A DNA stretch of 64,000 nt, from assembly GCA_040374085.1 (NCBI GenBank), contig JBEIVB010000001.1, positions 10,074 through 74,073 of the forward strand. Reading direction: 5' to 3'. Positions 5,465 through 39,796 of this stretch are shown one piece after another. The first letter of the stretch is position 1; each line of letters starts with the position of its first letter. Source of the stretch: Flavobacteriales bacterium. Its GTDB lineage: Bacteria > Bacteroidota > Bacteroidia > UBA4408. The translations under genes and the position numbers were made by a program. Below the pieces are notes generated by a model. It saw only the letters and a list, made by a program, of their open reading frames with translations. It made no database searches and was not told the DNA's origin.

Positions 5465-5579
5465 AGGTTTCCATTCCGGCAATTCGAAAATTGCACTTGA
5501 GGATTTAATGTAACTAAACACAGAAGTGGCATTTCGCATTGCGAAAATCGAGCCATCTGTAATGCTCAATATGAGGGGT

Positions 5580-6665: not shown

Positions 6666-6719
6666 AGAACAAATATAGCCTAAAACTGCCCACCAAATTG
6701 GGCTCAGGAGGTTATTTGT

Positions 6720-8584: not shown

Positions 8585-8658
8585 CTGATCAAATTTTGGG
8601 TAAAGAAAACGGTTTTTCGCGGTATATGCGAAGATGCATTAACAGGATTTAACTGCCC

Positions 8659-16705: not shown

Positions 16706-17467
16706 TTATGCGATTGAGGAGGTGGGGTTAAAGATCAGGTTTAAGGCCGGCATGCCTTCATGCCAAGGGACAAGGGCGCGGCCATCGAAGATAAAAACGC
16801 TGTATCCCATAGGCAACAAAGATTCCAATACTTGTTTGCGGTTCTCTGAATCCCACAATTCTGCTACCACCCATGGCTTCCAAAGGCGGAGGGTGGAAAT
16901 GGCACCTTTAATCACCGAAGATTCGAAATTCTCAACATCCAACTTAATAGCCGCAACGGGCACATCAGCATAATGGGCAGCCAGGAAATCATCCAGGGTA
17001 TCTACCGGTACGCTTTCCACCTCATCCTCTGAGCCGGCCGGCATTTCATTGGATACCACATGGCTGAGTCCTTGTTTTTTAACGCCTTTCAGGGTTGGCA
17101 TAGCCATGCTTAAGGTTCCTTTGCGGTCGCCCAAAGCAAGGGCATAAATGGAAAGGTTATGAATGCCATACGTTTCTCTTATACGCTGCAAAACCTCTCT
17201 GTTCTTCCGCATGGGTTCAAAAGCAAGCACCTGCTGTTTGGGATGAATGCGGCACATGTGCACACTCAAAATACCCAGGTTGGCACCCACATCCAGAATC
17301 AAACCCTCCTGAGGTACACAATCCAGAAAAGGAAATATGTGTCGCTCGGCTTTGTCCCATCGAAGGGTAAGTACTTTGAATTTGCAGAACCAAAATAGAT
17401 ACCGCTCAAAGCCCAGCAAACGCTGTAAAACAAACTGAAGCCACGCCTTCATTTCATCCGGACGCAA
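16706..17467 (-). CDS. FkbM-family SAM-dependent methyltransferase
   Basis: 253 aa. LDVGANLGILSVHM motif and overall FkbM (Methyltransf_21) pattern. 2-nt spacing to the DUF3109-like gene. Confidence 0.7.
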   Translation of the reverse strand: MRPDEMKAWLQFVLQRLLGFERYLFWFCKFKVLTLRWDKAERHIFPFLDCVPQEGLILDVGANLGILSVHMCRIHPKQQVLAFEPMRKNREVLQRIRETYGIHNLSIYALALGDRKGTLSMAMPTLKGVKKQGLSHVVSNEMPAGSEDEVESVPVDTLDDFLAAHYADVPVAAIKLDVENFESSVIKGAISTLRLWKPWVVAELWDSENRKQVLESLLPMGYSVFIFDGRALVPWHEGMPALNLIFNPTSSIA

Positions 17468-20966: not shown

Positions 20967-22130
20967 ATGAACGCGGGCCGCAGCATCGTTCACCTAGACC
21001 TCGATACCTTCTTCGTATCGGTGGAACGGCTCCGCAACAGCAGTTTATCCGGAAAACCGGTAATCATTGGAGGCAGCAGCGACCGTGGGGTTGTGGCAAG
21101 CTGCAGCTATGAGGCGCGGCACTTTGGCGTGCGCTCAGCCATGCCCATTCGAATGGCCCGACAGCTTTGTCCGGATGCTTTTTTTTTAAAAGGCGATTAC
21201 GAGCAGTACAGTCACTACTCCGACTTGGTTACCGAGATCATTGCCGAACGTGCGCCCTTATTTGAAAAAGCGAGCATAGACGAGCATTACATTGATGCTA
21301 CAGGAATGGAGCGTTTTTTTGGCACGGTAAAGTGGGCACAAGAACTGCGGACAACCATAGAAAAAGAAAGTGGCTTGCCTATATCCTTAGGCTTATCCAT
21401 AAACAAAACGGTGGCGAAAATGGCCACCAATGAATGTAAGCCTCACGGGGAATATCAGGTTCCTGCACATGGTGTTCAACCCTTTCTCGATCCCCTCTCG
21501 ATTCGAAAAATACCCATGATTGGAGCAAAGACCTTTCAGCGTCTCCGGTCTATGGGCGTAAGCACCATTGCGACACTCCGTGATATTCCGATGGAGCTCC
21601 TTGAACAAGTGTTGGGAGAACATGGACGTCTGATTTGGCTTAAGGCAAACGGCATCGATCAAAATCCGGTGATCCCTTACAGCGAACGGAAATCCATTGG
21701 CACCGAACATACCTTCGACCAAGACACTACCGACCTACAATTTTTAGAAGCTCGGTTGGTAGGCATGTGCGAAGAAATAGGCTTTCAGATGAGGCAGGAG
21801 CAAAAACTATGTTCCTGCGTTACGGTAAAGCTTAGGTACGCCGACTTCAATACCCATACCATGCAACAACGCATTCCCTATACAGCGTTTGACCACAAAC
21901 TGATTGAAGTAAGCAAAAATTTATTATCTAAACTATATAACAGAAGATTGCGAATACGACTTATCGGAGTGCGCTACACCCATTTGGTTCATGGCTCGCC
22001 GCAAATTCATCTTTTTGAAGACAGCGAAGAACTCATTAACCTTTACCAAGCTGTAGATCGCATGAAGGCCAAATACGGAGAACATGCGCTCTTAAGGGGG
22101 TGCAGTTTAAAAAAGAAAAATACGGAATAA
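20967..22130 (+). CDS. dinB: DNA polymerase IV (Y-family translesion polymerase)
   Basis: 387 aa. N-terminal IVHLDLDTFFVSVE and GKPVIIGG motifs, characteristic of the DinB/UmuC Y-family. Confidence 0.85.
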   Translation: MNAGRSIVHLDLDTFFVSVERLRNSSLSGKPVIIGGSSDRGVVASCSYEARHFGVRSAMPIRMARQLCPDAFFLKGDYEQYSHYSDLVTEIIAERAPLFEKASIDEHYIDATGMERFFGTVKWAQELRTTIEKESGLPISLGLSINKTVAKMATNECKPHGEYQVPAHGVQPFLDPLSIRKIPMIGAKTFQRLRSMGVSTIATLRDIPMELLEQVLGEHGRLIWLKANGIDQNPVIPYSERKSIGTEHTFDQDTTDLQFLEARLVGMCEEIGFQMRQEQKLCSCVTVKLRYADFNTHTMQQRIPYTAFDHKLIEVSKNLLSKLYNRRLRIRLIGVRYTHLVHGSPQIHLFEDSEELINLYQAVDRMKAKYGEHALLRGCSLKKKNTE

Positions 22131-22141: not shown

Positions 22142-23656
22142 TTACTTTGTAGCTGGCGACAATCCTATAACCTTAAAATTATTACCGGAGAATAAAACGT
22201 CAGCATGCGGAAAAGTAACATTCAAGAAAGAAGATCCTGAAAACTCAGGGGAATGCACTATGTATTGTATCTTGTCTTGAGCAACAGCTTGCTCAAAGTC
22301 GCGGTATTGGAATGGCGATTGCGATGGAACAAGATCGAGATTAGGGAAAATAGCTCGCTTGGGCATCATAATGTTTACATAAACATTGGTTGAAAACATT
22401 CGGCCCTCTGCAGATAAGTGAGCATTCATCCACGAAGCAACCCTTTGCGGTTCATCGTAAACAGACTTGGGTGTTCTCACGTGATTCATGTGCTCATGCA
22501 TCAACTTTTGAAGTAGAACGGCGGGAAAAAAAATCATCAAACTTAAACAAGCGAACCAACCCAATCTGCCCGACAGAGGATTTTGAAAATCATGATCTGC
22601 ACTTGAACGCAACCAAAATCCAAGAAACAAAAGAGATGACATAATACTTTCTTGATAATAGTTAATCCAAGAACCTTCTTTCATACTGGTTAGAAAAGCA
22701 AAACAAAAAAACACCAAGTTGCATAGCCCTAACCAGAGCACAATAGGGTTTCGGGGAAAGCGAAACATCCAAAGAATACTGAAAAGAGCCAATGCAAACA
22801 CAAACTCGCTCTTCAGGTAATAGTGTGAAAAAACATCATAGGCCCTAAATGGAATAAGCCCGTTACGAATGCCTTCAAACGTATTCTTCCAAAACCAATC
22901 TCCCCAAATAGAACGGCAAGTAAAGTATCCTATTGCAAATAGTCCGACATATCCAAATGAAAAAACAAGAGCTGGTTTCCAAAGACGCCTTAAAAACAAA
23001 AACAACACTACCAGAGGGGGCAGAACCATCCCGGTTTGTTTGGTAAAAAGTGCTAGGCAAGCCAAAAGGGATACCCAAAGCCAACTGTATACACGAGATC
23101 CTATATAAGTTTGATCTGAAAGGTGAAGCACATACAAGACAGTTGCAAGGCTGACAAGAGCAAACAAAGAATCAGGGCGGGTGGCAAAATGTATTCGCGT
23201 TAGAAAATAAAACTCCAAAGCACAAATAACAAAACACCAGGCAGTATTTAACTGCCATTTACGACGTAAAAAGAGCCACAAAAAGATCACCCCTGCTAAA
23301 TCAAAAAACAAGCTCACAGAACGACCCAAAACAAAAAAATCATGAGCATTTTGAAGGGATTGCAATCCGAAGATCTTTGCCAATGCTACAACAATGAGAT
23401 AGTAAATTGGAGTATACTGTGTAATGTCGTAATGGAATCGCTCAGGATCCTGATATAAAGGCTCACCGGAAACAACTTTAGAAATGGAAAAGATCACATT
23501 TTGCTCGATTCCACCCAAATCAACAGCGTAGGAACCAACCAACAAAATCCGAAACAGAAGCATAATCAGGAAAGAGGCAACTGCAATCCAACCGCTTAAG
23601 CGGAGAGGACCTTGTTGCACAAGCCAGGTGAATACAGGGGAAAGTATGTTGGTCAT
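22142..23656 (-). CDS. Polytopic (~12 TM) membrane protein, GT-C-fold glycosyltransferase-like (ArnT/PMT/oligosaccharyltransferase-like), function unknown
   Basis: 504 aa with many hydrophobic helices, a first large loop containing acidic residues (DLGG...DPERFHYD), and a soluble ~110-aa C-terminus. Start codon overlaps the upstream methyltransferase stop (4 nt). Confidence 0.4.
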   Translation of the reverse strand: MTNILSPVFTWLVQQGPLRLSGWIAVASFLIMLLFRILLVGSYAVDLGGIEQNVIFSISKVVSGEPLYQDPERFHYDITQYTPIYYLIVVALAKIFGLQSLQNAHDFFVLGRSVSLFFDLAGVIFLWLFLRRKWQLNTAWCFVICALEFYFLTRIHFATRPDSLFALVSLATVLYVLHLSDQTYIGSRVYSWLWVSLLACLALFTKQTGMVLPPLVVLFLFLRRLWKPALVFSFGYVGLFAIGYFTCRSIWGDWFWKNTFEGIRNGLIPFRAYDVFSHYYLKSEFVFALALFSILWMFRFPRNPIVLWLGLCNLVFFCFAFLTSMKEGSWINYYQESIMSSLLFLGFWLRSSADHDFQNPLSGRLGWFACLSLMIFFPAVLLQKLMHEHMNHVRTPKSVYDEPQRVASWMNAHLSAEGRMFSTNVYVNIMMPKRAIFPNLDLVPSQSPFQYRDFEQAVAQDKIQYIVHSPEFSGSSFLNVTFPHADVLFSGNNFKVIGLSPATK

Positions 23657-24438
23657 GCCACCCTATTCTTTTGCCTACAGATGAAAAACACACTGCTTCC
23701 CCACACAGCATTCCGAAGAAAAGGCATCCATTGCCTATACTCCGGATAAGGATATAAGGCCGGTAAAAGAACGTGTTCAATTTCAAAATGAGGCGCAATC
23801 AACTTCTTCCAATTGGAAACCCGATAGTATCTCAAATCATGTAAAACAGTGGCTCCTTCTACACTGTGAGATGGGGTAAAGAGGATGTTCTTCACGCTTC
23901 CTTTTCCGGTGCTGATCCATCTACCCAAAAAAGCATTAATGATGCGATGCGGGGTGGTCATTAAAAGCAGCCCAAACCAGCCGATGAGCGCCATACAAGC
24001 CGTGGGCATGCCAATGATGAGGACGCCATCGGGCTTCAGAACGCGCGCCATTTCTTTCAAGCTCCCATCCACAGATTGAACATGCTCTAAGACATGCGAA
24101 GAATACAAAACATCGAAATGGGCATCGGAAAAGGGTATAGATTCGGCAAAGGCCTGTCTGATTTCCATAGCTTCTAAGCTATAATTTGAGCCGTCGCGAC
24201 CAACTCCATGAGCTCCTGGCGATGGATCAATTCCATAAGACGTTAGACCCAGTTCCCGTGCTCTTTGCATGGCGTAACCGGCTCCACAACCCACATCAAG
24301 AAACATTCCGGGGCGGATGAAAGGCACAACCGCAGCCCATTCCACATCCCTAATGCGTTTTTGATTAACGTTGGTTGCTTCCTTACTCAGGAAGGGAAAC
24401 TGATAAAGCTTCAAAAGAAAAGATTTCAAACTGCCCAT
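23653..24438 (-). CDS. Class I SAM-dependent methyltransferase (Methyltransf_11-like)
   Basis: LDVGCGAGYAMQRARELG motif I. 261 aa. Overlaps GT2 gene end by 13 nt and GT-C gene start by 4 nt. Confidence 0.75.
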   Translation of the reverse strand: MGSLKSFLLKLYQFPFLSKEATNVNQKRIRDVEWAAVVPFIRPGMFLDVGCGAGYAMQRARELGLTSYGIDPSPGAHGVGRDGSNYSLEAMEIRQAFAESIPFSDAHFDVLYSSHVLEHVQSVDGSLKEMARVLKPDGVLIIGMPTACMALIGWFGLLLMTTPHRIINAFLGRWISTGKGSVKNILFTPSHSVEGATVLHDLRYYRVSNWKKLIAPHFEIEHVLLPALYPYPEYRQWMPFLRNAVWGSSVFFICRQKNRVA

Positions 24439-25328
24439 CGCTTACTTTTAATAAAATCATACAACAAATAGATCTTCTTTTTGGTGGTAGAGGAAACAGG
24501 ATCCACCAAAATAGACCTTAACACAAACCAAACCGTAGGAAAAAAACGCCCCATTAAATGGTGATGACGCGCTATTCCGAAATAACTGTCACTAATCAAA
24601 TGCCTTTTTAAAGCAGGGTTTACCTTATCAAGCATATCAGGTTGGGAAAACAGTTTACGCAAACCCTTCAAACGAGGCAGAAAACAATTCTTCGCAATAT
24701 CTACAGAGTTATCATCATGGAGATGATAAAGCACAGTACGGGCCTTTAGCTGAATAATCGGATAACGAGTGGCAATTGTACACCACAGCACGGTGTCTTC
24801 CACAATGACAATGTCGGTCCTAAACTGAAACACCTGAAAAATAGACGCAGAAACACAAACACGCGCAGGAATTATGGAGTTGCGCAGAAAAAAATCGATT
24901 GGATCACTGCCCATTTCAGTTATTACCTGAGCTTCGCGTTCCGATCCTCGCAGATAGTAGCAATGAGTAAAAACTAAAGCATCCGGAAAATCTTGTTCAG
25001 AAAGTAAGTTAAACAACTTCTGTAGATGATCGGGCAGGTAATAATCATCGCTATCCAGAAAACAAATATACCGCCCTTTGGAATTCCTAGCACCGTTGTT
25101 TCTGGCAGCACTCCTTTCTGCATTCACCTGAAATACATAATGAATGCGGGCATCTGCTCGAGCAATTTCTTCAACCACCTGGCGCGTGTCGTCGGTTGAA
25201 CCGTCATCTACAACCCATAATTCCCAATTCTGAAACGCTTGATTCTGAACGGAAGAAATTGTGGAAGGCAACAATCCTGCTCTATTGTAAGCAGGAATTA
25301 CCACGCTAAAAAAAGGCTGGTCCATCAT
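24426..25328 (-). CDS. Family 2 glycosyltransferase
   Basis: FSVVIPAYNRAGLL...VVDDGSTDDT and DSDD motifs (GT-A fold, GT2). 300 aa. Confidence 0.8.
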   Translation of the reverse strand: MMDQPFFSVVIPAYNRAGLLPSTISSVQNQAFQNWELWVVDDGSTDDTRQVVEEIARADARIHYVFQVNAERSAARNNGARNSKGRYICFLDSDDYYLPDHLQKLFNLLSEQDFPDALVFTHCYYLRGSEREAQVITEMGSDPIDFFLRNSIIPARVCVSASIFQVFQFRTDIVIVEDTVLWCTIATRYPIIQLKARTVLYHLHDDNSVDIAKNCFLPRLKGLRKLFSQPDMLDKVNPALKRHLISDSYFGIARHHHLMGRFFPTVWFVLRSILVDPVSSTTKKKIYLLYDFIKSKRWAV

Positions 25329-26158
25329 AAAGCAACCTCCTCCTCAAACCAAGCATCAGGTACGATGTTAACCGGATAAGGTTGACCGACTTTAAATCCT
25401 AAAAAATTGCGCGGTACATGAACTTTCTTGCCCGGGACCTTATTTAACCAAGCCGCCCACCAACTGAATGTGCTGTGTGCATTAATACAAACATGTGCAT
25501 GCTGAATGAACTGAAAATCTACAATAGGGTCCTCTTTTGAAAAAATGGCACCGGGAACATCACTAAATACCTTAGCCAATGCATCCGGCTCATCAGATAA
25601 AAAAACAACTTGATAGCAAGTTAAATCGTATCGACCCAAAAGATTATGGTAATAAGACCATGGCAAACTAAGATCAGGACCGCCCAAATAATCTGGACCG
25701 AACGTTCGATAATCTTTCAAACGAATGTGAACTGTAAGCAATGGCTTCACAATTCCTAGACGCTCAATAGCCTTTCCATAAAGCTCTTTATACACTCGCT
25801 TGATGTTAAAACACGCTGCAATGTCCTCATCCCTGCCGAAAAAATATCGTTCTCCTTGAAAGTATCCATAGAACCAATGATTAGCGCCTTGGAGGTTTAA
25901 CATTGAGTTGGAATAGTCGGTGCGGTTATCCTGAAAATGGTGAAATCGGTAACCCAATCCCGGAATCTTGTTAAACAGGCGAAATCGCTGATACCGGAAA
26001 CTATTTCGACTACGCTCGCCGGCAGACAACTCGAAAAAGCGAAGGTGATGCAAATCACTTAACGCATAGGGCATCTTCAACCGAGCTGAAAGTGATCGAG
26101 CACAAGCGTAAATAAACATTTGATTCCCCATTTGACAATGGGAGTGAAAAACAAGCAT
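25325..26158 (-). CDS. Family 11 glycosyltransferase (alpha-1,2-fucosyltransferase-like)
   Basis: GT11 motifs HIRLKDY (HxRRxD-like) and STFSWWAAWL. 277 aa. 4-nt ATGA overlap with the GT2 start. Confidence 0.7.
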   Translation of the reverse strand: MLVFHSHCQMGNQMFIYACARSLSARLKMPYALSDLHHLRFFELSAGERSRNSFRYQRFRLFNKIPGLGYRFHHFQDNRTDYSNSMLNLQGANHWFYGYFQGERYFFGRDEDIAACFNIKRVYKELYGKAIERLGIVKPLLTVHIRLKDYRTFGPDYLGGPDLSLPWSYYHNLLGRYDLTCYQVVFLSDEPDALAKVFSDVPGAIFSKEDPIVDFQFIQHAHVCINAHSTFSWWAAWLNKVPGKKVHVPRNFLGFKVGQPYPVNIVPDAWFEEEVAL

Positions 26159-26169
26159 AACTCCGGTTC

Positions 26170-28197
26170 CTATTTGCTCAAGATTTTTATCTCCGTTCTA
26201 CGATTCATCTGCCTGCCCTGTTCGGTATCATTGGATGCTATGGGTATGCTAAAACCATAACCAACGGCTTGCAATCGATTCGCCTTTATACCCTTCGAAA
26301 TGAGGTAATCCATAACCGATTGAGAGCGACGCTGACTTAAATCAAGGTTATACCGCTCCGATCCTTTATTGTCGGTATGACTGGACAACTCAATCCTCAT
26401 TGTGGGATAATCGTTTAGAATTTTAACGAGAAGATTCAGTTCCACGATTGATTCCTTTCTCAAAGTAGCCTTATCAAAGTCATAAAACACGTTGCGCAAC
26501 ACCATGCGGGTTCCGGCAGATAAGGACTTAAGACGGATTTCTTTAATGATCTCCTGATTCTCGACCTGAATGGAAAGATCAATGTTCTCAGAATGAAAAA
26601 GATGAGACGGGGCTTGAACAGCAATACCATAATTTTTTCCTGATGGAAGAGAAACCAAAAATTTACCGGTTTTGCTGTTCGATTGGAAGGAAGCCACCTC
26701 TTTTCCTTTTGCATTATCCGTTACAGAAATAGTTGCTTCAAGCGGAACTCCCGTATCATCATCCAATATGACTCCTTTCAAAATTATGACATTGTTGGAG
26801 CTTATCTGCTCGGCTTTTGCCATCATCTTTCCTGTCTCTATAACGGGTTTAGAAATGCCTGCCAATAAGACATCCTCATTGGTAAGCACAGGAATCTTTT
26901 CTTTACCCATGAAAGTAATAAGATAGATATCTCTCAAACCATACCCCTCCTTTCGAACAGATGCATAATAACCATGTCGGCCGCTTGCAGATAATACAAA
27001 TGCCATATCATCGTCTGGGGTGTTAACCGGATAACCAATGTTCACCGGCTTTTTAAAATTGCCGGAGGTATCCATTTCGGCTTTAAAAATATCGAAGCCT
27101 CCCATGGTTTCATGTCCTTTAGAACTGAAATACATGGTTTTTCCATCGGGCATCATAAAAGGAGTTTGTTCATCGTAAGGAGTGTTAATGGATGGCCCCA
27201 GATTGCGAACCTCTCCCCATTTGCCCTTTTCATCGAGAGAACATGCATAAATATCGCTTCCCCCCAATCCACCGCTGCGATCAGAAACAAAAAAAAGCGT
27301 TTTCTCATCGAAAGAGAAAGATGCCGCAGACTCATGATCCTTCGAGGATATCTGGCGGGGAAAAGCCTCCGGATTCGACCACCTATCTCCTTCGAGTTTA
27401 CACACATAAATGTTTCCGGAGCCATTGTCATCGATGTAAATCAACAGCTTCTGACCATCGGAAGATAAATTAATGGTAGCATCATGGCCGGGAGTATTAA
27501 CCGGAGGGCCTAAATTCTCAGGAAGACTCCATGTATTGTTGAATCGATTGGAAACAAAAATATCTTCAAAATACTCGTCGTAATTTGGATCAATTTTTCC
27601 GCCGGTGGTATTGATTCTTCTGGATGTAAACATCAACACCGATTCATCTGCTGAAATTACCGGGCTATAATCGGTAAAAGGCCCATTTATTCCGGATCCA
27701 AGATTTTCAACCTGTGCACGTATGGGAGATTCAACTAGCTTCCTGCCCACGGCAACTTCCTCTAAACGCTTGGTAACTTCAGCAAACTCTTGCCGCGATT
27801 CCTTCTTCCCGAGCTTAAGGTTCGATTTAAATGCTTCATAATCAACCTGGGCCTGATCCCATTTTGAATCCAGGTGATAACAAAAGCCCAAATAATAATG
27901 AACATCGAATGCAACGTTAGCATTCATTTCAAACGCCTTCTGAAAATAAGCTTGGGCATTGTACTTAAGAGGCGAGTTGAGGTAGCATCTTCCTATCCGG
28001 TATTTGATCTCGGCCCTGCTTCCATCCATGCTATCTGCCCTCAAATAAAAGACGAGAGCCTTGCGATGCATGTTGGGACCTTGATCATAAAATTCATCGC
28101 CACTTAAAACTGCTTCTTTGTACAACCTAGACTGGGCTGCAAGATTACTCCACATTAGAGCACAAATAAAACACACGAGAAAAAATCCGTTTTTCAT
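26170..28197 (-). CDS. TPR / TolB-like PD40 repeat / OmpA-domain protein (paralog of the 18-1994 protein)
   Basis: 675 aa. Signal peptide. Same repeat motifs (NLGPPVNTPG...DG.T.YFSS) and C-terminal OmpA-like HTDNKGSERYNLDLSQRRSQSV...NRRTEI. Confidence 0.7.
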   Translation of the reverse strand: MKNGFFLVCFICALMWSNLAAQSRLYKEAVLSGDEFYDQGPNMHRKALVFYLRADSMDGSRAEIKYRIGRCYLNSPLKYNAQAYFQKAFEMNANVAFDVHYYLGFCYHLDSKWDQAQVDYEAFKSNLKLGKKESRQEFAEVTKRLEEVAVGRKLVESPIRAQVENLGSGINGPFTDYSPVISADESVLMFTSRRINTTGGKIDPNYDEYFEDIFVSNRFNNTWSLPENLGPPVNTPGHDATINLSSDGQKLLIYIDDNGSGNIYVCKLEGDRWSNPEAFPRQISSKDHESAASFSFDEKTLFFVSDRSGGLGGSDIYACSLDEKGKWGEVRNLGPSINTPYDEQTPFMMPDGKTMYFSSKGHETMGGFDIFKAEMDTSGNFKKPVNIGYPVNTPDDDMAFVLSASGRHGYYASVRKEGYGLRDIYLITFMGKEKIPVLTNEDVLLAGISKPVIETGKMMAKAEQISSNNVIILKGVILDDDTGVPLEATISVTDNAKGKEVASFQSNSKTGKFLVSLPSGKNYGIAVQAPSHLFHSENIDLSIQVENQEIIKEIRLKSLSAGTRMVLRNVFYDFDKATLRKESIVELNLLVKILNDYPTMRIELSSHTDNKGSERYNLDLSQRRSQSVMDYLISKGIKANRLQAVGYGFSIPIASNDTEQGRQMNRRTEIKILSK

Positions 28198-28200
28198 GCT

Positions 28201-29286
28201 TTAATGTTCAGTTGTTGGGCATTCCATCAAATAGAATTTCGCATTCTCAGAACCCTTCTTAGCAGCAATCGACCAATCCTGACAGGCCGATGAAAATTCA
28301 CTGATCATTTCCTTTGCAATGCCTCGATTCAAAAATGCGTTGGCAAGATTAGGATCGAGGCGAATGGCCTGAGAACAGGCATCAATGCAACCGTGGTAGT
28401 CTTTGTTTTTGAACCGCGCAACGCCAAGGTTAGAAAAGGCAATTGCATATTGAGGGTCGATCTGTGTTGCAGCTTTGAAGTCGTCGGCGGCCAAATCAAG
28501 CTTTCCAAGTTCTAGGAGAACAGAGCCTCTGTTGTTGAGGGTCTGTATGTTTTGGGGATCCATGGAAAGAGCTTTGGTGTAGGCATCAAGCGCAGCGGAA
28601 TAGTCTTGTGTTATGCGCATCAGACTCCCCAGGTTGCTCCATGCCAAAGAAAATTGGGAATCCAGCTCAATTGCTTTTTGGTAATCACGTTTTGCGCCTT
28701 GAAAATCTCCTTGCTGACGCTTGGTGCTGCCCAGATCATTCCATCCAAAAGCAAAATCCGGCTTCAATTCTACTGCGCGGGTAAATTCTTGAGAGGCCTT
28801 TTCGAAATCACCCAAGCTGAAATAACACATGCCACTTTCGTAATACGGCAAATGGTTAGATGGAGTACGCTCTTTCAACTTGGAAAACATTTCAACTGCC
28901 TCTGTGAATTTTTTTTGATTGGAAAGAACTCGCGCTAAACCCAGCTGAGCCGATTCAGAGGAGGGATTGATTCTCAACACGGCCTCGAAATCGGATTGAG
29001 CAATGGCATATTCTCGAAGCTCCATACATACCAAGCCACGATTCAACAGCGCCTTTTCAAATCCAGGTTTAGATTGCAGAGCAAGAGAAAAGGCCGCTTT
29101 AGCACCGGGGTAATCCTTTTGCTGGAAACGAGTAAGGGCAAGGTTGAATGTGCGTTCCGCCTCCTGCGATTCCATAACCACCCCAACCGAAACCAAAGAA
29201 TCGGAATTGCCAACATGTTGAGCCAACAAAACCTTCGGTAAGCAGGTTACCCAAATGGAAAAGAGCATCATCCAGGCGGTTTTCAT
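28201..29286 (-). CDS. Secreted tetratricopeptide-repeat protein
   Basis: 361 aa. Signal peptide. ~8 canonical TPR units (e.g. AQSDFEAVLRINPSS, WSNLGSLM...YSAALDAYTKALSMDPQN). 3 nt upstream of the OmpA-type gene. Confidence 0.7.
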   Translation of the reverse strand: MKTAWMMLFSIWVTCLPKVLLAQHVGNSDSLVSVGVVMESQEAERTFNLALTRFQQKDYPGAKAAFSLALQSKPGFEKALLNRGLVCMELREYAIAQSDFEAVLRINPSSESAQLGLARVLSNQKKFTEAVEMFSKLKERTPSNHLPYYESGMCYFSLGDFEKASQEFTRAVELKPDFAFGWNDLGSTKRQQGDFQGAKRDYQKAIELDSQFSLAWSNLGSLMRITQDYSAALDAYTKALSMDPQNIQTLNNRGSVLLELGKLDLAADDFKAATQIDPQYAIAFSNLGVARFKNKDYHGCIDACSQAIRLDPNLANAFLNRGIAKEMISEFSSACQDWSIAAKKGSENAKFYLMECPTTEH

Positions 29287-29386
29287 GCAATCGTGGATTT
29301 TGGCTAAAGTTAGTAACTAATGTTTATCCAATAACACATGGGATAACTTTGTTGAAGGCTTCAGCTTTTCGTACCATTGCAGGTAA

Positions 29387-31207
29387 ATGAAAGCCTTTCT
29401 GAATCCCCTTGCCCTTTTGGTTTGTATAGGGTCGTTTTTGGGTTGCAACCCGAATGCGAAAAAGAACAAACAACCCAATGCTAAGCCGTCGTTAACCCAA
29501 TTTCTCGATTCCTTGTTCGAGGCTCAGCTTCGGGATAATCCTCAATACCAAACCACCCTTGGCGTGCGCACCCAGGATAGCCTTTGGACCGATGCTTCGG
29601 ATGCCTACCAACAAAAGTCGTTTGAACGAACAAAAAGGGAATTAACGGCATTGGAAAATCGTTTCGATCGTAAACAACTAAACGCTCAAGACGTCATTTC
29701 GTATGACCTTTTCGTGCAATCATGCACAGAACAGATGGAGGCATTTCCGTTTCGTTTCCACAATTACCCGCTGAACCAGATGGAGGGGCTGCATGCCTCC
29801 ATCCCTTCTTTCCTCATCAACATGCACACCATTGAGGAGGTCCGTCATGCACAAACCTACCTGGCAAGATTGGCCGGCATACCAAAGCAGCTTAGGGATT
29901 TGCAAGTGCAACTCGACACTCGTCTTAAAATGGGAATACTGCCTCCAGCTTTTGTTTTTCCTAAAGTTGAAGAAGATTGTCGAAATCTTTTAAAAGGAAA
30001 ACCCTTCGACAATTCCTCCACCGATTCACCCCTTTTCGAGGATTTTTATAATAAAGTAAACGCAGTAAAATCCATTCCGCCGAACGAGGCTGAGGCCCTT
30101 ATAAAAAGAGCAAAAAAACTGCTTGTAGATTCTGTAGCTCCCGCTTACCGCAACCTCATTCTGTACTGGAAAACCCTTGCGCAAAAAGCAGATGATCGAG
30201 ATGGGGCATGGAAGTTTCCCGATGGTGAAAAGTTTTACGCAATGGCTTTGCGCCACACAACCACTACGCCATTAACCCCCGATCAAATTCACGACATAGG
30301 CTTAGCTGAAGTTGCGCGCATACATGATGAAATGGAATCCATAAAGAAAAAGGTTGGGTTCAAAGGATCACTGAAAGAGTTTTTTACCTTCATGCGCACA
30401 AGCAAAAAATTCTATTTCCCTTCAACCGAAGAGGGCAAGAAGTCTTACTTAAACGCAACCAATGCCATCATAGATAACATGCGGGGCAAGTTGGATCAAC
30501 TTTTCATCACCAAGCCCAAAGCGGCGCTGGTGGTTAAACCCGTTGAGCCTTTCAGAGAGCGCTCTGCCGGCGGTGCATTTTATGAAGAACCTGCCCTGGA
30601 TGGATCCCGTCCAGGACGTTACTACATCAACCTATATACCTTAAACGATCAACCTACTTACCAGATGGAGGCTTTGGCTTACCACGAAGCCATTCCCGGT
30701 CATCACATGCAAATTGCCATTGCCCAAGAATTGAAAGAGCTACCCAAATTTCGAACCTTGGGAGGGAACACAGCCTATGTAGAGGGTTGGGCTTTATATG
30801 CAGAGCGTGTACCGAAAGAAATAGGTCTATACACCGATCCCTATGCAGACTTTGGGCGCTTAGCTATGGAGGTTTTCAGGGCCTCACGATTGGTCATCGA
30901 CACCGGAATTCACTTTAAAAAGTGGACCCGAAAACAAGCTTACCAATACATGATAGACAACACGCCAAATCCCGAAGGCGATTCTCAGAAGGAGATAGAT
31001 CGTTACATCGTTTGGCCCGGCCAAGCTACTGGTTATAAAATAGGCATGATAAAAATATTGGAACTGAGAAGCAAAGCGCAGAAGGCCTTAGGCAGCAAAT
31101 TCGATTTGCGCACCTTTCACGATGTAGTTTTAACAAATGGCTCGGTGCCTTTGAATATGCTGGAAAACTTGGTTGACCAATACATCAACAAGGCAAAAGC
31201 ATCATGA
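29387..31207 (+). CDS. DUF885 family protein (putative metallopeptidase-like, secreted/lipoprotein)
   Basis: 606 aa. Signal peptide. Conserved YHEAIPGHHMQ motif typical of DUF885. Confidence 0.65.
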   Translation: MKAFLNPLALLVCIGSFLGCNPNAKKNKQPNAKPSLTQFLDSLFEAQLRDNPQYQTTLGVRTQDSLWTDASDAYQQKSFERTKRELTALENRFDRKQLNAQDVISYDLFVQSCTEQMEAFPFRFHNYPLNQMEGLHASIPSFLINMHTIEEVRHAQTYLARLAGIPKQLRDLQVQLDTRLKMGILPPAFVFPKVEEDCRNLLKGKPFDNSSTDSPLFEDFYNKVNAVKSIPPNEAEALIKRAKKLLVDSVAPAYRNLILYWKTLAQKADDRDGAWKFPDGEKFYAMALRHTTTTPLTPDQIHDIGLAEVARIHDEMESIKKKVGFKGSLKEFFTFMRTSKKFYFPSTEEGKKSYLNATNAIIDNMRGKLDQLFITKPKAALVVKPVEPFRERSAGGAFYEEPALDGSRPGRYYINLYTLNDQPTYQMEALAYHEAIPGHHMQIAIAQELKELPKFRTLGGNTAYVEGWALYAERVPKEIGLYTDPYADFGRLAMEVFRASRLVIDTGIHFKKWTRKQAYQYMIDNTPNPEGDSQKEIDRYIVWPGQATGYKIGMIKILELRSKAQKALGSKFDLRTFHDVVLTNGSVPLNMLENLVDQYINKAKAS

Positions 31208-36629: not shown

Positions 36630-37355
36630 ATGAGCCAAGAACACCGGGAAAATCAACCCCGGGTGCTGTTGGTTGAGGATGAAGAACACCTGCTCGAAAC
36701 CATCACCCTAAACCTGGAGCTCGAGGGCATGGAAGTGATCCGTGCAGTTGAAGGGAAACAGGCCCTGAAGTACTTTCACAGCGCCCGATACGATCTCATC
36801 ATACTGGATGTGATGCTCCCAGAAATAGATGGTTTCACCCTGTGCCGAACGATGCGCAAAGAAAACCCTTTGGTGCCCATACTCATGCTCACAGCCAAGG
36901 GAAGCAACCAAGATCGAGTGGAAGGCTTGAAACTGGGCGCAGATGATTACCTAACAAAACCATTTCACTTGGAAGAATTCCTGCTCAGGGTTCACGGACT
37001 CATACGGCGGGGACGGCAGCAAAGTCCGAGCCCGTCTATAGAGCAATACCGATTCGGCCCAAACCAAGTCGATTTCCGATCCTACCGCGTAATCTGCGCA
37101 GATGGAACCGAACAAACGCTTACAAAAAAGGAAGTGCAGCTTCTGAAGCTCCTCATTGAAATGGAAAGCCAAGTGGTGTCACGCGATGCCATTTTGGAAT
37201 TGGTCTGGGGCTACGAAATATACCCCACCGCCCGCACCATCGACAACTTCATTTTAAATTTTAGAAAGTACTTTGAGCCCAATCCCAAGCAACCCATCTA
37301 TTTTCACTCCATTCGTGGAGTGGGATACAAGTTTGTAAAGAACGGAGGCATTTGA
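36630..37355 (+). CDS. Two-component response regulator, OmpR/PhoB family (no cognate kinase nearby)
   Basis: Receiver domain (LLVEDEE...DLIILDVMLP...LTAKGS...GADDYLTKPF) and winged-helix output domain. Only 4 nt after ettA. Confidence 0.85.
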   Translation: MSQEHRENQPRVLLVEDEEHLLETITLNLELEGMEVIRAVEGKQALKYFHSARYDLIILDVMLPEIDGFTLCRTMRKENPLVPILMLTAKGSNQDRVEGLKLGADDYLTKPFHLEEFLLRVHGLIRRGRQQSPSPSIEQYRFGPNQVDFRSYRVICADGTEQTLTKKEVQLLKLLIEMESQVVSRDAILELVWGYEIYPTARTIDNFILNFRKYFEPNPKQPIYFHSIRGVGYKFVKNGGI

Positions 37356-38419
37356 GTTTCTCTCTACACGAGGCTGGCATGGGTAATTTTGTGTATTTTG
37401 CGCGATTGAATATGGCGAGAAGTCTTATCTTCCTGATTCTGTGGTGCTTACCTTTTATAGGGCTTGCTCAAACCCCAACCGTGCAGGTTTGGATGCAGGG
37501 TGCGGGGTACCGCGATTCTTCGTTTTATGACATTCTTCCTCTTTCCGGGGGGGATTGTTGGGTTGCCGGCAAATACGGCATTCTCAAAAAGGTAACGCCA
37601 GATGGGAAAATAGACAATGTGCCCTACCCCACGCTCGGCTTAGACATTTACCGCCTAGGTGCGTTCGACGAAGATCACCTCATTGCGTGCGCAGACAAAG
37701 GGGTCGTTTATCTCCATCAACCTTCCACAAAAAACTGGAATACCGTTAAAGTTAAGGGTTATGAAAAGTCTTGTTTTTACAGCCTAAAAGTGGTAAACAA
37801 AAGCACGGCTTTCTTGTGCGGTGGCAACAGCAAAATTGCACATTCCCAAAAAGCAATTCCACGGGGCTTTATTCTAAAATCGGAAGACGGCGGGCTTACA
37901 TGGAAAGAGGTTTACAGGAATGTGGGACAGATGGTTTGGGATGTGGCTTGGGATTCGGAAAGAAATTCATGCACCGCACTGGTTTACAGTCCAAACAAAA
38001 CCAGGCTCTACCGCTCCGATGCCCAAGGAGAAAATTGGAAAAATGAAAAAAAACTCGGGCAAGGTATTTTTTACCAAGCCGGGTGGAACAACGGCCAACT
38101 TGCCTGTACGGGCGGAACATTAAAAGGCGATGGGCGTATTTTCGAGGAAGGTCACGATGAGATTTTCAGAAAAGTTGGGTTGATATGGAGTGCAAAAAAA
38201 AATGGGGCTAAAGAGGTCTTTACTGGCAGTAGGTCCACGCTCCTCTTGAGGGAAGGTTCCAACCAGCCCCTTCAAGTTTTTTCCACCGGACTTACCAAAC
38301 AATACAACCTATACCGAGCTCATTTTCTAAGCGACTCTAAGGTTTTGGTTGTGGGCAGCGGAAAAACGATGCTGCTGCTCGAATGGCCCTATCCGGCGGA
38401 AGCCCGCCAAAAGCCATAG
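37352..38419 (+). CDS. Secreted BNR/Asp-box repeat beta-propeller protein (Ycf48/sialidase-like fold), hypothetical
   Basis: Asp-box motifs SEDGGLTWKEV and SDAQGENWKN. Signal peptide MARSLIFLILWCLPFIGLAQ, so the real start may be the Met at 37412. The listed start overlaps the response regulator stop by 4 nt. Confidence 0.5.
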   Translation: MSFSLHEAGMGNFVYFARLNMARSLIFLILWCLPFIGLAQTPTVQVWMQGAGYRDSSFYDILPLSGGDCWVAGKYGILKKVTPDGKIDNVPYPTLGLDIYRLGAFDEDHLIACADKGVVYLHQPSTKNWNTVKVKGYEKSCFYSLKVVNKSTAFLCGGNSKIAHSQKAIPRGFILKSEDGGLTWKEVYRNVGQMVWDVAWDSERNSCTALVYSPNKTRLYRSDAQGENWKNEKKLGQGIFYQAGWNNGQLACTGGTLKGDGRIFEEGHDEIFRKVGLIWSAKKNGAKEVFTGSRSTLLLREGSNQPLQVFSTGLTKQYNLYRAHFLSDSKVLVVGSGKTMLLLEWPYPAEARQKP

Positions 38420-38421: not shown

Positions 38422-39774
38422 TTAAGGCTCTCTTGCCAAAAGCTCGGCATACAATGCCGTTGTTAGGCTGGAGGATCGAAAAAAAAGACAGTTTCTTACT
38501 ACCGTTCCTCCACTGAAAAAAACACCGCCGGGCAAATACGCTTCCTCTCCATTCGAAACTACCTGAGTTTCTAGAAAAGCTTTGGCCTTGGATAAGGCTT
38601 TTTTAGCCTGCTCATCCTCTTTCCCCAAAATGGAAAGAGCCAGAGCAGCATAAAGGGTGTTTTGTATGCGATCTCCTTTTAGAATACGATGCCTGCCTTT
38701 ATAAGATCCATCAGGTCTTTGGGTACGCAGCAAATGCTTCAATGCCGTATGCCTAGCCTCATTGAGCTCCGGGTTTCCAGCATCCCAAGCCCGAGCAATG
38801 GCCAAATGAAAAGTATACCGATTGGGATAATACGTTCCTCCTCTTGACCAACGTCCGGTTCGCGCTTTTTTATTGATTAAACGTATAGCACCCGCTCTCG
38901 GGCAAATGGAATCCGGTACTCCAGCTTTTCCCAGGTATGTAAGTACATTACAATTAACCACTCCATCGAATTCATTTGCTCCATAAGGAATGTACTCTCT
39001 TTTGCCATCTGGATAACACGAACTCCACGGTGCAAAAAACCAGATGTTTGCCCATAAAGTTTTATATATACTCCAACCACCAGGATATTGGTGCTCATCT
39101 GACAGCCAGGTTAAGAATGCGCCTCTCCCATAAGACAGATCAAATGAGTAATTGTACCAGTGGAAGTTTTTTCGATTCTCATCTGTATAGCAGCTCATGG
39201 GTATTTGCGCAGGGGGCTTTGCTCCATGCCACCACTCCGCGAGCAGCCCGGTAGAAGTATCATCAGCATCTGGAGCCACATTGGCTGCATGATTGATGAA
39301 CGGTTTTTTTAAGGGGAAGCAGGTAGGTCTTATTACCGAGTCGGGAGGGCTCTTGCCCCATCCGGGATTGGGCTTCAGATGCTTCCAAAAATAATACCGC
39401 CCGTTCCGTTTATAGGTGAGCAACTCCCGATAGGAATCATCCATCATCTTCTTCACAAAGGCCTCCACCTCGTTCCTCTGAACTACCTCGCAAAGAGCAT
39501 TGTGAACGGCAATGGTTGTAAACGCGTTCGAATCTCGAAACCTACCCTTCTTGCCCAACATAACAAAGGCAAATTTTAATTCCATAGAACCGGGCCATTC
39601 CCCCTGAAAAGCAGTATCGGCAACAGATTGGGTAACCTGCTGGTGATAAAGGTAGGTCAGCAAGGAACTCAACCTTGCAGAGGGCTTAGCAAGCACCTGA
39701 GCACCCAAAGGTCTGCTGCTCGCAAACACCAAGATGATCAGCCAAAGAATAAGACCCGCTCGTTTTAGTATCAT
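38422..39774 (-). CDS. Secreted hypothetical protein with QW-like repeats and a DxDD(T/S) motif (prenyltransferase/squalene-cyclase-repeat-like alpha/alpha-toroid candidate)
   Basis: Probable start MILKRAGLILWLIILVFASSRPLGAQV (signal peptide). The listed ORF runs to 40050 but overlaps the divergent GT gene. Motifs DADDTS, EHQYPGGWS, LRTQRPDGSYKG. Confidence 0.4.
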   Translation of the reverse strand: MILKRAGLILWLIILVFASSRPLGAQVLAKPSARLSSLLTYLYHQQVTQSVADTAFQGEWPGSMELKFAFVMLGKKGRFRDSNAFTTIAVHNALCEVVQRNEVEAFVKKMMDDSYRELLTYKRNGRYYFWKHLKPNPGWGKSPPDSVIRPTCFPLKKPFINHAANVAPDADDTSTGLLAEWWHGAKPPAQIPMSCYTDENRKNFHWYNYSFDLSYGRGAFLTWLSDEHQYPGGWSIYKTLWANIWFFAPWSSCYPDGKREYIPYGANEFDGVVNCNVLTYLGKAGVPDSICPRAGAIRLINKKARTGRWSRGGTYYPNRYTFHLAIARAWDAGNPELNEARHTALKHLLRTQRPDGSYKGRHRILKGDRIQNTLYAALALSILGKEDEQAKKALSKAKAFLETQVVSNGEEAYLPGGVFFSGGTVVRNCLFFRSSSLTTALYAELLAREP

Positions 39775-39796
39775 TGCAACAAAGGTAATCAAGCCA

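Follow-up and report, generated by a model that had tools for sequence, protein, structure and literature searches.

A candidate mosaic operon of envelope and surface-glycan genes in a Flavobacteriales genome, ending in a putative Gtr/ArnT-like GT-C glycosyltransferase

Six adjacent genes in a 64-kb stretch of Flavobacteriales DNA (64,000 nucleotides; here called the window) on balance appear to form a mosaic operon of three separable layers, the last of which, gene 6, would be a Gtr/ArnT-like transferase using an Und-P-sugar donor. Gene 6 is most likely a further case of known machinery and not a new protein-glycosylation system; periplasmic glycosylation by a Und-P-sugar synthase together with a GT-C enzyme has already been described (PMC11127046). 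The original prediction interpreted the genes as one module, an interpretation that holds only in part since comparative genomics separates the operon into three layers.

Layout of the six-gene block

Within 22142-29286, exactly six ORFs reach 250 aa, all on the minus strand (Table 1), and all other ORFs of at least 80 aa in this region are out of frame and nested within the six genes. A seven-gene operon had been announced, yet the title of that prediction itself names six products. The predicted strand and spacing were correct at all junctions, which in gene order are gaps of 3 and 11 nt followed by overlaps of 4, 13, and 4 nt. The bordering genes are DinB, which is convergent with the block and stops at 22130, and DUF885, which is divergent and starts at 29387; neither terminator-like nor promoter-like sites occur inside the block above chance. 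It is plausible from this layout that the six genes form a single transcription unit. Co-transcription had been called very likely and is probable. Gaps of at most 13 nt are found in 20 of the 32 same-strand neighbour pairs of the window. As tight spacing is thus usual in this genome, spacing alone gives little indication of functional linkage. In the divergent intergenic region, TAACTTTG, an exact Bacteroidota -7-like element, is located upstream of DUF885 on the plus strand (29344-29351), while on the operon strand the motif occurs with one mismatch at best, as TAACTTTA, located ~20 nt upstream of the ATG. These elements might conceivably serve as promoters of the DUF885 gene and the operon; the -7-like motif is not enriched across the window.

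Table 1 Features of the six-gene block and its upstream region (window coordinates).
Feature	Position	Strand	Assignment	Supporting match or remark
Intergenic region	29287..29386	.	Divergent region common to operon and DUF885 gene	100 nt, presumed operon promoter region
Gene 1	28201..29286	-	361-aa periplasmic TPR-repeat protein	TPR_1 E 1.5e-56
Gene 2	26170..28197	-	675-aa PorE/CHU_0125-like envelope protein	PD40 E 3.5e-22, OmpA E 6e-20
Gene 3	25325..26158	-	277-aa divergent GT11, alpha-1,2-fucosyltransferase-like, cytoplasmic	PF01531 E 1e-3
Gene 4	24426..25328	-	300-aa soluble GT2 (GT-A fold)	Glycos_transf_2 E 9e-35
Gene 5	23653..24438	-	261-aa class I SAM-dependent methyltransferase (MT)	Methyltransf_11 E 3.7e-23
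Gene 6	22142..23656	-	504-aa GT-C-fold membrane glycosyltransferase	Unnamed Bacteroidota family

Envelope pair and glycan cassette

Gene 1 begins with a hydrophobic, signal-peptide-like N-terminus ending in LLA/Q, and the N-terminus of gene 2 also resembles a signal peptide, with no obvious lipobox when read from the sequence. Gene 2 starts with a TPR region, continues with a PD40 beta-propeller and a CarboxypepD_reg-like domain, and ends in an OmpA-type domain for peptidoglycan binding. It aligns end-to-end with the NCBIfam family CHU_0125_OmpA (351 bits, cut-off 620, E 9e-105) and, best over residues 10-426, with T9SS PorE (316 bits, cut-off 600, E 6e-94). Each score reaches only about half of its curated cut-off, so gene 2 is a paralog of the two families, in a third group, and a member of neither. 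Within a search of at most 8000 candidates, more than 3900 homologs with ~50% identity were found at E<=1e-60 across Bacteroidota. In L023, L024, L025, L051, and L052, the gene immediately preceding the PorE-like gene is an ortholog of gene 1 (phmmer E 1e-162 to 1e-60). Throughout Bacteroidota the pair is kept, in most cases next to a divergent DUF885 gene and with no GT genes; for example, the more distant genomes L025, L051, and L052 carry the pair only. The TPR and PorE-like proteins thus appear by sequence comparison to be an ancient, widely conserved envelope pair. Judging by the OmpA_C domain and the published phenotypes of CHU_0125 and PorE, this first layer most likely anchors components of the outer membrane to peptidoglycan.

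The second layer is predicted to act at the cytoplasmic face, with gene 3 as a deoxyhexosyl/fucosyl-type enzyme. Although gene 3 scores 18.9 bits against PF01531, under the Pfam gathering threshold of 23.9 bits, all 17 of its orthologs match this family (best E 4.6e-17). Their alignment displays an invariant G11-N-Q-M-F-I-Y-A and R146..D149, with H144, S229, W233, and W234 conserved. The N-terminal GNQMF-x-YA, central H-I-R-x-x-D-Y, and C-terminal S-T-F-S-W-W-A-A-W-L of gene 3 correspond to the three classic GT11 motifs. The best PDB relatives of gene 4 are chondroitin synthase K4CP, GalT1, heparosan synthase, and PglI. A role of gene 4 as a GtrB/ArnC-type polyprenyl-phosphate sugar synthase was considered and rejected, the match to ArnC reaching only E 4.5e-5 in the N-terminal part. 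GT11 orthologs were found in 15 metagenome loci, followed by a gene 4 ortholog in 11 of them, as also in L023, and gene 5 orthologs follow GT11 or GT11-GT2 in L023, L024, L026, L027, L033, L036, and L037. Gene 5 is probably a sugar O-methyltransferase that shares its glycan substrate with genes 3 and 4. In 11 other loci, GT11-GT2(-MT) neighbours genes for DegT aminotransferases, an epimerase, a methyltransferase of the TylF type, GT4, or a GtrB-like protein. The cassette is mostly found amid sugar-nucleotide and GT genes and follows a PorE-like gene only in the lineage of the window, where it may have been inserted just downstream of the envelope pair. Genes 3-5 thus resemble a portable cassette, separable from the envelope pair. 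They may extend and methylate a lipid-linked surface glycan, either an LPS/O-chain or the outer part of an O-glycan, whose core machinery would be located elsewhere. In L035, a GT-C-like membrane protein is encoded after the GT11 ortholog.

The closest syntenic relative is L023, whose PorE-like protein is 82% identical to gene 2 and whose order is TPR, PorE-like, GT11, GT2, MT, and then DinB, without a GT-C gene. L024, L026, and L027 contain PorE-like, GT11, and MT, an order that holds in five loci down to ~60% protein identity. The link between envelope pair and GT genes is therefore real, but limited to one lineage (the window, L023, L024, L026, and L027). Conservation of the operon, suggested as a check of the original prediction, was accordingly found for this link within the lineage, yet not for gene 6, and elsewhere the pair is kept without GT genes. 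Gene 6 thus appears to have been added to the operon's 3' end in a lineage-specific event.

The GT-C membrane protein and its relatives

Gene 6 spans the membrane with ~12 TM helices and carries an alpha/beta domain of ~110 aa on the periplasmic side at its C-terminus. Its fold is GT-C, with ArnT as the best structural match and both ArnT and ALG12 outscoring PMTs, yet identity to ArnT is only 12-13%. Sequence searches against PDB returned no match, even at E<=10, and gene 6 does not resemble known Gtr GT-C enzymes or any curated family in sequence. Among 58 relatives, D46 is D/E/N in 95% and E51 is D/E in 95%, both just after TM1, while R160, D162, K206, and Q207 are invariant. The acidic residue after TM1 and D162, in the second periplasmic loop, would be placed like the catalytic Asp pair of ArnT reported by Petrou et al. 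2016. The fold and the conserved residues argue for a catalytic protein rather than a non-catalytic transporter or permease. Conserved acidic residues after TM1, a feature that the original prediction proposed to look for, are thus present, and the domain calls were confirmed for all six genes (TPR; TPR/PD40/CarboxypepD_reg/OmpA; GT11; GT2; methyltransferase; GT-C fold). The family comprises 496 representatives at E<=1e-30, all ~500 aa, and two narrow peptide patterns matched only 15 loci in a scan of 185,579 species genomes.

In nine distinct loci, the GT-C relative adjoins a GtrB/ArnC-type Und-P-sugar synthase, often with a 4-nt overlap. In L001, for example, the GT2 whose gene overlaps that of the GT-C homolog matches Synechocystis GtrB (5ekp) with E 9e-60 and ArnC with E 5e-38 over the full length, including two C-terminal TM helices. 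This arrangement recurs in L004/5, L006, L009, and L012, where the synthase is upstream; the synthase is immediately downstream in Pedobacter L017 and L019 as well as in L018, and close by in L010. In L017 the pair is part of a cluster encoding Wzx, GT4, GT2, GT8, GT14, and an acyltransferase, and in L006 and L009 it adjoins transposases. A GT9 heptosyltransferase-type gene adjoins the pair in L004, and MlaEF adjoins the GT-C gene in the Cytophagales loci L007 and L014, which, like the closest relative L008 (35% identity), have no adjacent synthase. No GT-C relative is located beside GT11, window-type GT2, or MT. As the relatives pair with a Und-P-sugar synthase, the donor is likely a single-sugar monophosphate and not an Und-PP-oligosaccharide. 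No GtrA-like small flippase ORF is present within 5 kb in 13 of 14 loci, leaving the canonical three-component layout incomplete. Neither the operon nor the window encodes a GtrB/ArnC-like synthase, an initiating phosphoglycosyltransferase, or a flippase such as Wzx, and the donor synthase would thus be encoded outside the window.

Gene 6 is best read as a single-sugar transferase of the periplasmic side and not as an oligosaccharyltransferase for a fucosylated, methylated glycan. As the last addition to the operon, it would take one sugar from an Und-P-sugar donor after the donor has been flipped to the periplasmic face and attach it, as a late side-branch, to a glycan or lipid that has already been exported, in the manner of Gtr and ArnT. 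D46 and E51, together with the R160-x-D162 and K206-Q207 loops, would form the catalytic and phosphate-binding sites. On the other hand, the 4-nt overlap with the MT gene might mean that gene 6 acts on the product of genes 3-5.

Alternative readings and known systems

That overlap also fits the dedicated module originally proposed, in which genes 3-5 build a lipid-carried fucosylated, methylated glycan and gene 6, as O-oligosaccharyltransferase, transfers it as a whole to envelope proteins, for instance the products of genes 1 and 2. Deoxyhexoses and O-methyl groups do occur on Bacteroidota O-glycans (PMC8698959), and the O-OTase and glycan ligase of the phylum are still undiscovered (PMC12871550). 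Yet this reading is very improbable, as L023 keeps the other five genes without the GT-C, the relatives of gene 6 pair with Und-P-monosaccharide synthases and not with GT11, window-type GT2/MT, or Wzx alone, and initiating transferase and flippase are missing from the window, while the envelope pair occurs without GTs elsewhere. Nor is the Bacteroidota O-glycosylation sequon D(S/T)(A/I/L/V/M/T) enriched in the two envelope proteins, where it occurs once in each against 0.9 and 1.9 expected by chance. The GT-C family is also too patchy for a phylum-wide essential system (~500 clusters, against the far more numerous PorE-like matches at a stricter E-value). Patchiness and the absence from L023 equally weaken a PMT-like role, in which gene 6 would attach the first sugar, e.g., mannose from Und-P-Man, to periplasmic Ser/Thr. 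Here, a GtrB/Ppm-like partner would supply Und-P-Man, and gene 6 would belong to the undiscovered core-glycan step of Bacteroidota, which a 2025 review likens to eukaryotic O-mannosylation. The weak Pfam PMT_2 match (18.9 bits, E 2e-3) and the dolichol-P-mannose-synthase-like GT2 of the relatives are consistent with this, but the L001 partner is nearer GtrB, an Und-P-Glc synthase, than DPMS (E 1e-13), and gene 6, outscored as a PMT by ArnT and ALG12, has no MIR domain or canonical DE dipeptide. Both parts of the PMT-like reading are therefore improbable.

Somewhat less remote, though still unlikely, is a role in modifying lipid A or LPS core in the manner of ArnT, with a sugar from a Und-P donor being placed on a phosphate or on a sugar of the core, and equally unlikely is its corollary that genes 3-5 independently decorate the LPS core or O-chain. 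Size, the small C-terminal domain, the ArnC-like partner, and the GT9 and MlaEF neighbours agree with such a role, whereas no ArnA, ArnB, or ArnD-type genes are found near any family member, PDB sequence searches were empty, and in Pedobacter the surroundings are those of a Wzx-type glycan cluster, not of a lipid A locus. This reading is a special case of the favoured Und-P-sugar transferase, differing in the acceptor alone. Finally, genome compaction could have joined three functionally unrelated layers, with read-through transcription of no functional meaning. The spacing elsewhere in the window, the occurrence of each layer without the others, and GC3 values of 0.38-0.39 in the GT-C, GT2, and GT11 genes, with flanking genes slightly higher at 0.47-0.51, speak for it. 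Compaction nevertheless has a slim chance of being the whole explanation, as the PorE-like, GT11, MT order outlasts usual random adjacency and a GT-C-like protein follows GT11 in L035 as well.

CHU_0125 is an outer-membrane integrity protein of Cytophaga hutchinsonii (PMC5891637). Gene 2 shares its four-part architecture and that of PorE, but is accompanied by a TPR partner gene of its own and by a DUF885 neighbour, both conserved. PorE is the T9SS protein PG1058. Gene 3 resembles the GT11 alpha-1,2-fucosyltransferases FutC and WbsJ in the family match of its orthologs, yet is very divergent, with the second Arg of their HxRRGD motif replaced (HIRLKDY). ArnC and ArnT (GT83) are responsible for lipid A aminoarabinose transfer; gene 6 is similar to ArnT in length, fold, and periplasmic domain, but differs in its low identity, in lacking Arn pathway genes nearby, and in the partner synthase of its relatives, which is nearer GtrB than ArnC. 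The general O-glycosylation of Bacteroidota relies on the LFG locus, encoding Wzx and GTs including a fucosyltransferase (PMC12871550, PMC8698959). The operon, from the same phylum, likewise combines a fucosyl-type GT, a further GT, and a methyltransferase, which could yield the typical deoxyhexose- and O-methyl-containing glycans, with a polytopic enzyme of a fold suited to periplasmic transfer; unlike that system, it has no Wzx, its cassette and GT-C gene are lineage-specific, and the relatives imply an Und-P-monosaccharide donor. Gtr systems comprise the GtrA flippase, the Und-P-Glc synthase GtrB, and a serotype-specific GT-C Gtr enzyme, and have been extended to GT136 (PMC11127046). Gene 6 differs from these in sequence, in the missing GtrA-like neighbour of its relatives, and in being appended to a GT11-GT2-MT cassette instead of a GtrB partner. 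As in Gtr systems, however, its relatives share operons with a GtrB-type GT2 that has two C-terminal TM helices, and, like seroconversion cassettes, these pairs are located within or adjacent to glycan clusters and alongside transposases.

Gene layout of the minus-strand block

The block at 22142-29286 holds six minus-strand ORFs, one fewer than the seven counted in the original prediction, while the junctions are as first described, with gaps of 3 and 11 nt and overlaps of 4, 13, and 4 nt. With a shared strand and short or negative spacers, the genes have the layout of an operon. Terminator-like hairpins within the block occur at chance (8 versus 8.3 expected), and a motif scan found fewer sigma-70-like promoters inside it than chance would give. 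No promoter for the block itself was identified in scans for sigma-70 and Bacteroidota -7 motifs, which gave hits at or below chance. It is plausible that the block forms a single transcript. The spacing is, in itself, weak evidence for a common function, since tight packing is usual in this genome: of 32 pairs of adjacent genes on one strand in the window, 20 are separated by 13 nt or less.

Features of the block and other genes in the window
Feature	Coordinates	Strand or orientation	Length (aa)	Remark
Gene 1, TPR protein	28201-29286	-	361	
Gene 2, PorE-like protein	26170-28197	-	675	
Gene 3, GT11-like protein	25325-26158	-	277	
Gene 4, GT2	24426-25328	-	300	
Gene 5, methyltransferase	23653-24438	-	261	
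Gene 6, membrane protein	22142-23656	-	504	
DinB-type polymerase gene	20967-22130	convergent		stop 11 nt from block end
DUF885 gene	29387-31207	divergent		100 nt from block start
FkbM-type methyltransferase gene	16706-17467			
ORF	5580-6665		361	no Pfam match, E<=1e-5
ORF	37352-38419		355	no Pfam match, E<=1e-5
ORF	38422-40050		542	no Pfam match, E<=1e-5
ORF	41587-42525		312	no Pfam match, E<=1e-5

The remainder of the window is ordinary housekeeping chromosomal DNA from a member of the Bacteroidota that has a type IX secretion system (T9SS). Among its products are PGI, IleRS, a signal peptidase, DegP/Q, asparagine synthase, a TonB receptor, two response regulators, and a cargo protein carrying the C-terminal sorting domain of the T9SS, and this remainder is neither an LPS nor a capsule locus. 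Among the four ORFs devoid of Pfam matches, the 355-aa one overlaps the stop of a response-regulator gene by 4 nt.

The envelope pair and the glycan cassette

Genes 1 and 2 form an envelope pair. The gene 1 protein consists of TPR repeats throughout and has a signal-peptide-like N-terminus, while the gene 2 protein combines TPR, PD40 beta-propeller, CarboxypepD_reg-like, and OmpA_C domains, an architecture shared with the PorE and CHU_0125 families. PorE is a T9SS component described as peptidoglycan-binding (PMC11611037), and Cytophaga hutchinsonii depends on CHU_0125 to keep its outer membrane intact (PMC5891637). The gene 2 protein aligns end to end with the NCBIfam CHU_0125 model (NF053607, E 9e-105) and matches the PorE model best over residues 10-426 (NF052230, E 6e-94), yet it stays below the curated cut-offs of both (351 vs 620 bits and 316 vs 600 bits, respectively). 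As these scores are about half of either cut-off, it belongs to a separate paralog group. PorE-like homologs number thousands, at about 50% identity.

The loci of relatives from other genomes and metagenomes (numbered L001-L052) carry different subsets of the block. In L023, where the PorE-like protein is 82% identical, the order is TPR, PorE-like, GT11, GT2, and methyltransferase; the GT-C gene corresponding to gene 6 is absent, and a 140-nt spacer lies between the methyltransferase gene and a convergent dinB gene. The flanks of L023 and the window share DinB, TonB receptor, DUF4249, and FkbM genes. L024 (60%) and L027 encode TPR, PorE-like, GT11, and methyltransferase proteins, and the short contig L026 encodes the last three of these. 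At L025 (57%), L051, and L052 (both 50-51%), genes of no relation to the block come after the TPR and PorE-like pair. The FkbM-type methyltransferase gene lies 5 kb from the operon, past the DinB, TonB-dependent receptor, and DUF4249 genes, and has the same place in L023. A DUF885 gene diverges from the pair in the window (pair at 26170-29286), in L051 (2058-8052), and in L052 (2744-8052). That this arrangement is kept at ~50% PorE-like identity hints that the genes have long shared a regulatory region or are linked in function.

The proteins of the envelope pair contain one Bacteroidota O-glycosylation sequon each, at or below chance, and adjacency is the only tie between genes 1-2 and the glycan genes. 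PorE-like and TPR genes found 4 kb from the GT-C homolog of L008 were considered as a conserved link and dismissed, as T9SS cargo genes and a gene for a 2-oxoacid dehydrogenase E2 intervene.

Genes 3-5 form the glycan cassette. With 18.9 bits, the gene 3 protein itself stays below the PF01531 cut-off of 23.9, yet each of the 17 orthologs collected matches this family (best E 4.6e-17). Its family alignment has invariant G11-N-Q-M-F-I-Y-A, R146, D149, S229, W233, and W234 and a nearly invariant H144, residues that sit in the three classic GT11 motifs. Judged by family profile and conserved motifs, gene 3 encodes a divergent GT11; the GT11 alignment profile gave no match among PDB sequences. One database gene call for gene 3 on the source contig is 264 aa long and would lack the invariant G-N-Q-M-F stretch at the N-terminus (region 26119-26158). 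Since the first GT11 motif would be lost with it, the start at 26158, which gives 277 aa, is preferable.

Gene 4 encodes a soluble GT2 of the GT-A type, with K4CP (chondroitin synthase), GalT1, heparosan synthase, and PglI as its nearest solved structures, and gene 5 encodes a class I SAM methyltransferase (Methyltransf_11, E 4e-23). It could be speculated that gene 4 encodes a synthase, free of TM helices, of the undecaprenyl-phosphate-sugar (Und-P-sugar) donor for gene 6, as GtrB/ArnC-type GT2s do. Its match to ArnC, however, covers residues 7-106 only (E 4.5e-5), GtrB-like queries score 26 bits, and full-length likeness to GtrB/ArnC, including the C-terminal TM helices, is lacking. This role was rejected, as the orthologs of gene 4 accompany GT11 without a GT-C gene and its nearest structures are ordinary GT-A enzymes.

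When metagenomes were searched with the gene 3 protein, 15 orthologous loci came up, with identities of 47-56%. The window-type GT2 gene directly follows the GT11 gene in 11 of them, whereas the window-type methyltransferase gene follows GT2 in three and comes straight after GT11 in L026 and L027. A PorE-like gene is located upstream of GT11 in only two of the 15. Other neighbours include epimerase/dehydratase, split transketolase, TylF-type O-methyltransferase, DegT aminotransferase, and GtrB-like GT2 genes in L030, DegT in L038, GT4 in L031 and L033, and FkbM methyltransferase in L037. These varied neighbours argue that genes 3-5 are a portable glycan-decoration cassette, and the relatives' loci indicate that its site behind the envelope pair is confined to one lineage. 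The L030 neighbours run co-directionally with the GT11 and GT2 orthologs (489-7886), and the string looks like an entire modified-sugar branch pathway. In L037, the FkbM gene is immediately upstream of the GT11-GT2-methyltransferase cassette.

The membrane protein encoded by gene 6

Sources that name the gene 6 protein label it "hypothetical protein". Its Pfam hits to PMT_2 (18.9 bits against a cut-off of 26.1) and Acyl_transf_3 are sub-threshold, and no NCBIfam model matched. Nor did it exceed any curated family threshold for ArnT (GT83), PMT (GT39), or STT3-PglB (GT66), and its profile found nothing at E<=10 among all PDB sequences. An exhaustive profile search gave 2671 cluster representatives at E<=1e-3, 496 of them reaching E<=1e-30; among the best 150 representatives listed, nearly all are about 500 aa and match over their full length. 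A word-index search with the 504-aa protein returned 8 homologs, and a query with a 58-sequence alignment gave no more; it took the exhaustive search to bring out the family. In addition, a genome scan found 15 loci, all in Bacteroidota (Bacteroidia, Saprospiraceae, Crocinitomicaceae, Spirosoma, Pedobacter, and Bacteroidales), a number that undercounts the family as the scan used a 4-sequence alignment and two narrow peptide patterns.

An AlphaFold2 model of the protein, made from an 8-sequence alignment (mean pLDDT 82, pTM 0.85), has roughly twelve membrane helices, and its C-terminal alpha/beta domain comprises about 110 residues. In a Foldseek comparison with the PDB, each of the first 40 matches is a GT-C enzyme, and ArnT ranks at the top (5F15, E 2e-6, TM 0.60/0.56); the protein has a polytopic membrane fold with the conserved N-terminal GT-C module. 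The GT-C fold suggested for the 504-aa protein in the original prediction is thus borne out by the model. The N-terminal extracytoplasmic loop also has an acidic motif of the kind that the prediction proposed to look for: D46-x-G-G-x-E51 follows immediately past TM1, and in 58 family members position 51 is D/E in 95%, while position 46 is D/E in 83% and D/E/N in 95%. D162 is located in the next outward loop and is invariant in the 58 members, together with R160, K206, Q207, and G328; K326, G49, Y68, Q80, Y81, and R112 are nearly so. We infer catalytic roles for D46, E51, and D162. From model and sequence, gene 6 looks like it encodes a catalytic GT-C glycosyltransferase and no permease.

The GC content of gene 6 is 0.406, against 0.465 for the window. 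A recent acquisition was considered on this basis and set aside, since genes 2-4 are about as low and composition is a weak hint. In L013 (5984-7538), the GT-C homolog is present as two overlapping ORFs, reflecting either a pseudogene with a frameshift or a misassembly.

Neighbourhoods, proposed mechanism, and comparison with known systems

Members of the gene 6 family are paired with an Und-P-sugar synthase in nine distinct loci. A GT2 gene encoding 305-315 aa precedes the GT-C homolog, mostly with a 4-nt overlap, for the homologs P0002 (L001-3), P0003 (L004/5), and P0004 (L006) and in L009 and L012. The GT2 of L001 matches Synechocystis GtrB (5EKP, E 9e-60) and ArnC (E 5e-38) over its whole length and ends in two hydrophobic helices. 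In Pedobacter L017 and L019, and also in L018, a 300-aa GT2 is encoded directly downstream; the L017 protein has GtrB and ArnC as its only PDB relatives and carries two C-terminal hydrophobic helices. In L010, such a GT2 gene lies about 3.7 kb from the GT-C homolog. The L017 pair is part of a cluster encoding Wzx, two GT4, four more GT2, GT8, a GT14-like "Branch" protein, and acyltransferase_3. No GtrB-like gene is present in the 64-kb window, and none is adjacent to the homolog in the closest relative, L008, or in the Cytophagales loci L007 and L014. Orthologs of the window GT11, GT2, and methyltransferase are absent from all 22 GT-C loci. By a crude hydropathy screen of 14 loci, 13 have no small polytopic ORF resembling GtrA within 5 kb.

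Several of these neighbourhoods have features of their own. In L006 (5099-16604), IS66, IS91, and IS21 transposases flank the GtrB-like/GT-C pair together with integrase fragments, and in L009 (8120-8908) the pair comes straight after an IS110-family transposase; it may move as a cassette. In L007 (6312-9894) and in L014, from a Spirosoma MAG (6286-9893), two Pfam-less proteins of 445-454 and 698-706 aa precede the GT-C homolog, and MlaF and MlaE genes follow on the opposite strand in conserved synteny. In L035 (10834-15184), the genes after a GT11 ortholog encode a membrane-anchored SGNH/GDSL-like protein of 478 aa and two polytopic paralogs of 411 aa (+) and 499 aa (-); both paralogs have a "DE" motif after TM1. 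The 411-aa protein matches the GT-C family profile weakly (E 3.4e-7), and L035 may be a second instance of GT11 beside GT-C-like enzymes.

The original prediction was that the operon could encode a dedicated envelope-glycan or protein O-glycosylation module, with gene 6 encoding the transferase of a fucosylated, methylated glycan. Its background is sound: GT-C enzymes act periplasmically on lipid-linked donors, and Bacteroidota O-glycans contain deoxyhexoses and methyl groups (PMC8698959). Transfer of this glycan en bloc within a dedicated module is contradicted by the missing gene 6 of L023, by the pairing of relatives with GtrB, and by the lack of initiating and flipping functions. The block is a mosaic of three layers: an ancient unit of DUF885 divergent from the TPR and PorE-like pair, an inserted GT11(-GT2)-methyltransferase cassette, and a terminal GT-C gene that would be specific to this species. 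By analogy with the Gtr/ArnT logic of periplasmic sugar addition from Und-P-sugars, as reviewed in PMC11127046, the best-supported mechanism for gene 6 would be the late addition of one sugar on the periplasmic side, drawn from an Und-P-sugar donor; the synthase of this donor would act in trans. As their substrates are nucleotide sugars and SAM, genes 3-5 must work on the cytoplasmic side, on a lipid-linked intermediate; the genes for its initiating transferase and flippase would lie elsewhere. The glycan decorated by genes 3-5 may also serve as the gene 6 acceptor, as hinted by the 4-nt overlap with the methyltransferase gene and by the GT-C-like pair beside the GT11 ortholog in L035.

For Bacteroidota O-glycosylation, no OTase, ligase, or core-glycan machinery has yet been discovered (PMC12871550), and any uncharacterised Bacteroidota GT-C family is a candidate for the periplasmic transferase. 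The gene 6 family could provide an Und-P-Man protein O-hexosyl (core) transferase or a "ligase" for joining or decorating the outer glycan, which would explain the Wzx/GT clusters in Pedobacter and the fucosyl-type GT and methyltransferase here. That it is one of the missing periplasmic enzymes of the general system strikes us as very improbable, because its distribution looks patchy (496 clusters at E<=1e-30, 15 species genomes in the scan with two narrow patterns, and absence at the syntenic site of L023). With such a distribution, the family is unlikely to be the answer to the missing transferases. The analysis offers a testable donor hypothesis for the family, an Und-P-monosaccharide from a GtrB-type partner, with D46/E51, R160, D162, K206, and Q207 as residues for mutagenesis.

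The analysis defines a sizeable Bacteroidota GT-C family of about 500 clusters at 50% identity that is unnamed in curated databases. The operon joining envelope scaffolds to glycosyltransferases, originally noted as unusual, probably reflects stepwise insertion behind a conserved gene pair, and operon-based guesses of function need comparison with relatives. In Gtr-type three-component systems, synthase, flippase, and GT-C enzyme are encoded together, whereas the window has neither synthase nor flippase, and the relatives of gene 6 have the synthase in nine loci, short of the full co-encoded set. Gene 6 is best filed as an unnamed new family inside the known GT-C kind, located in a mosaic operon.
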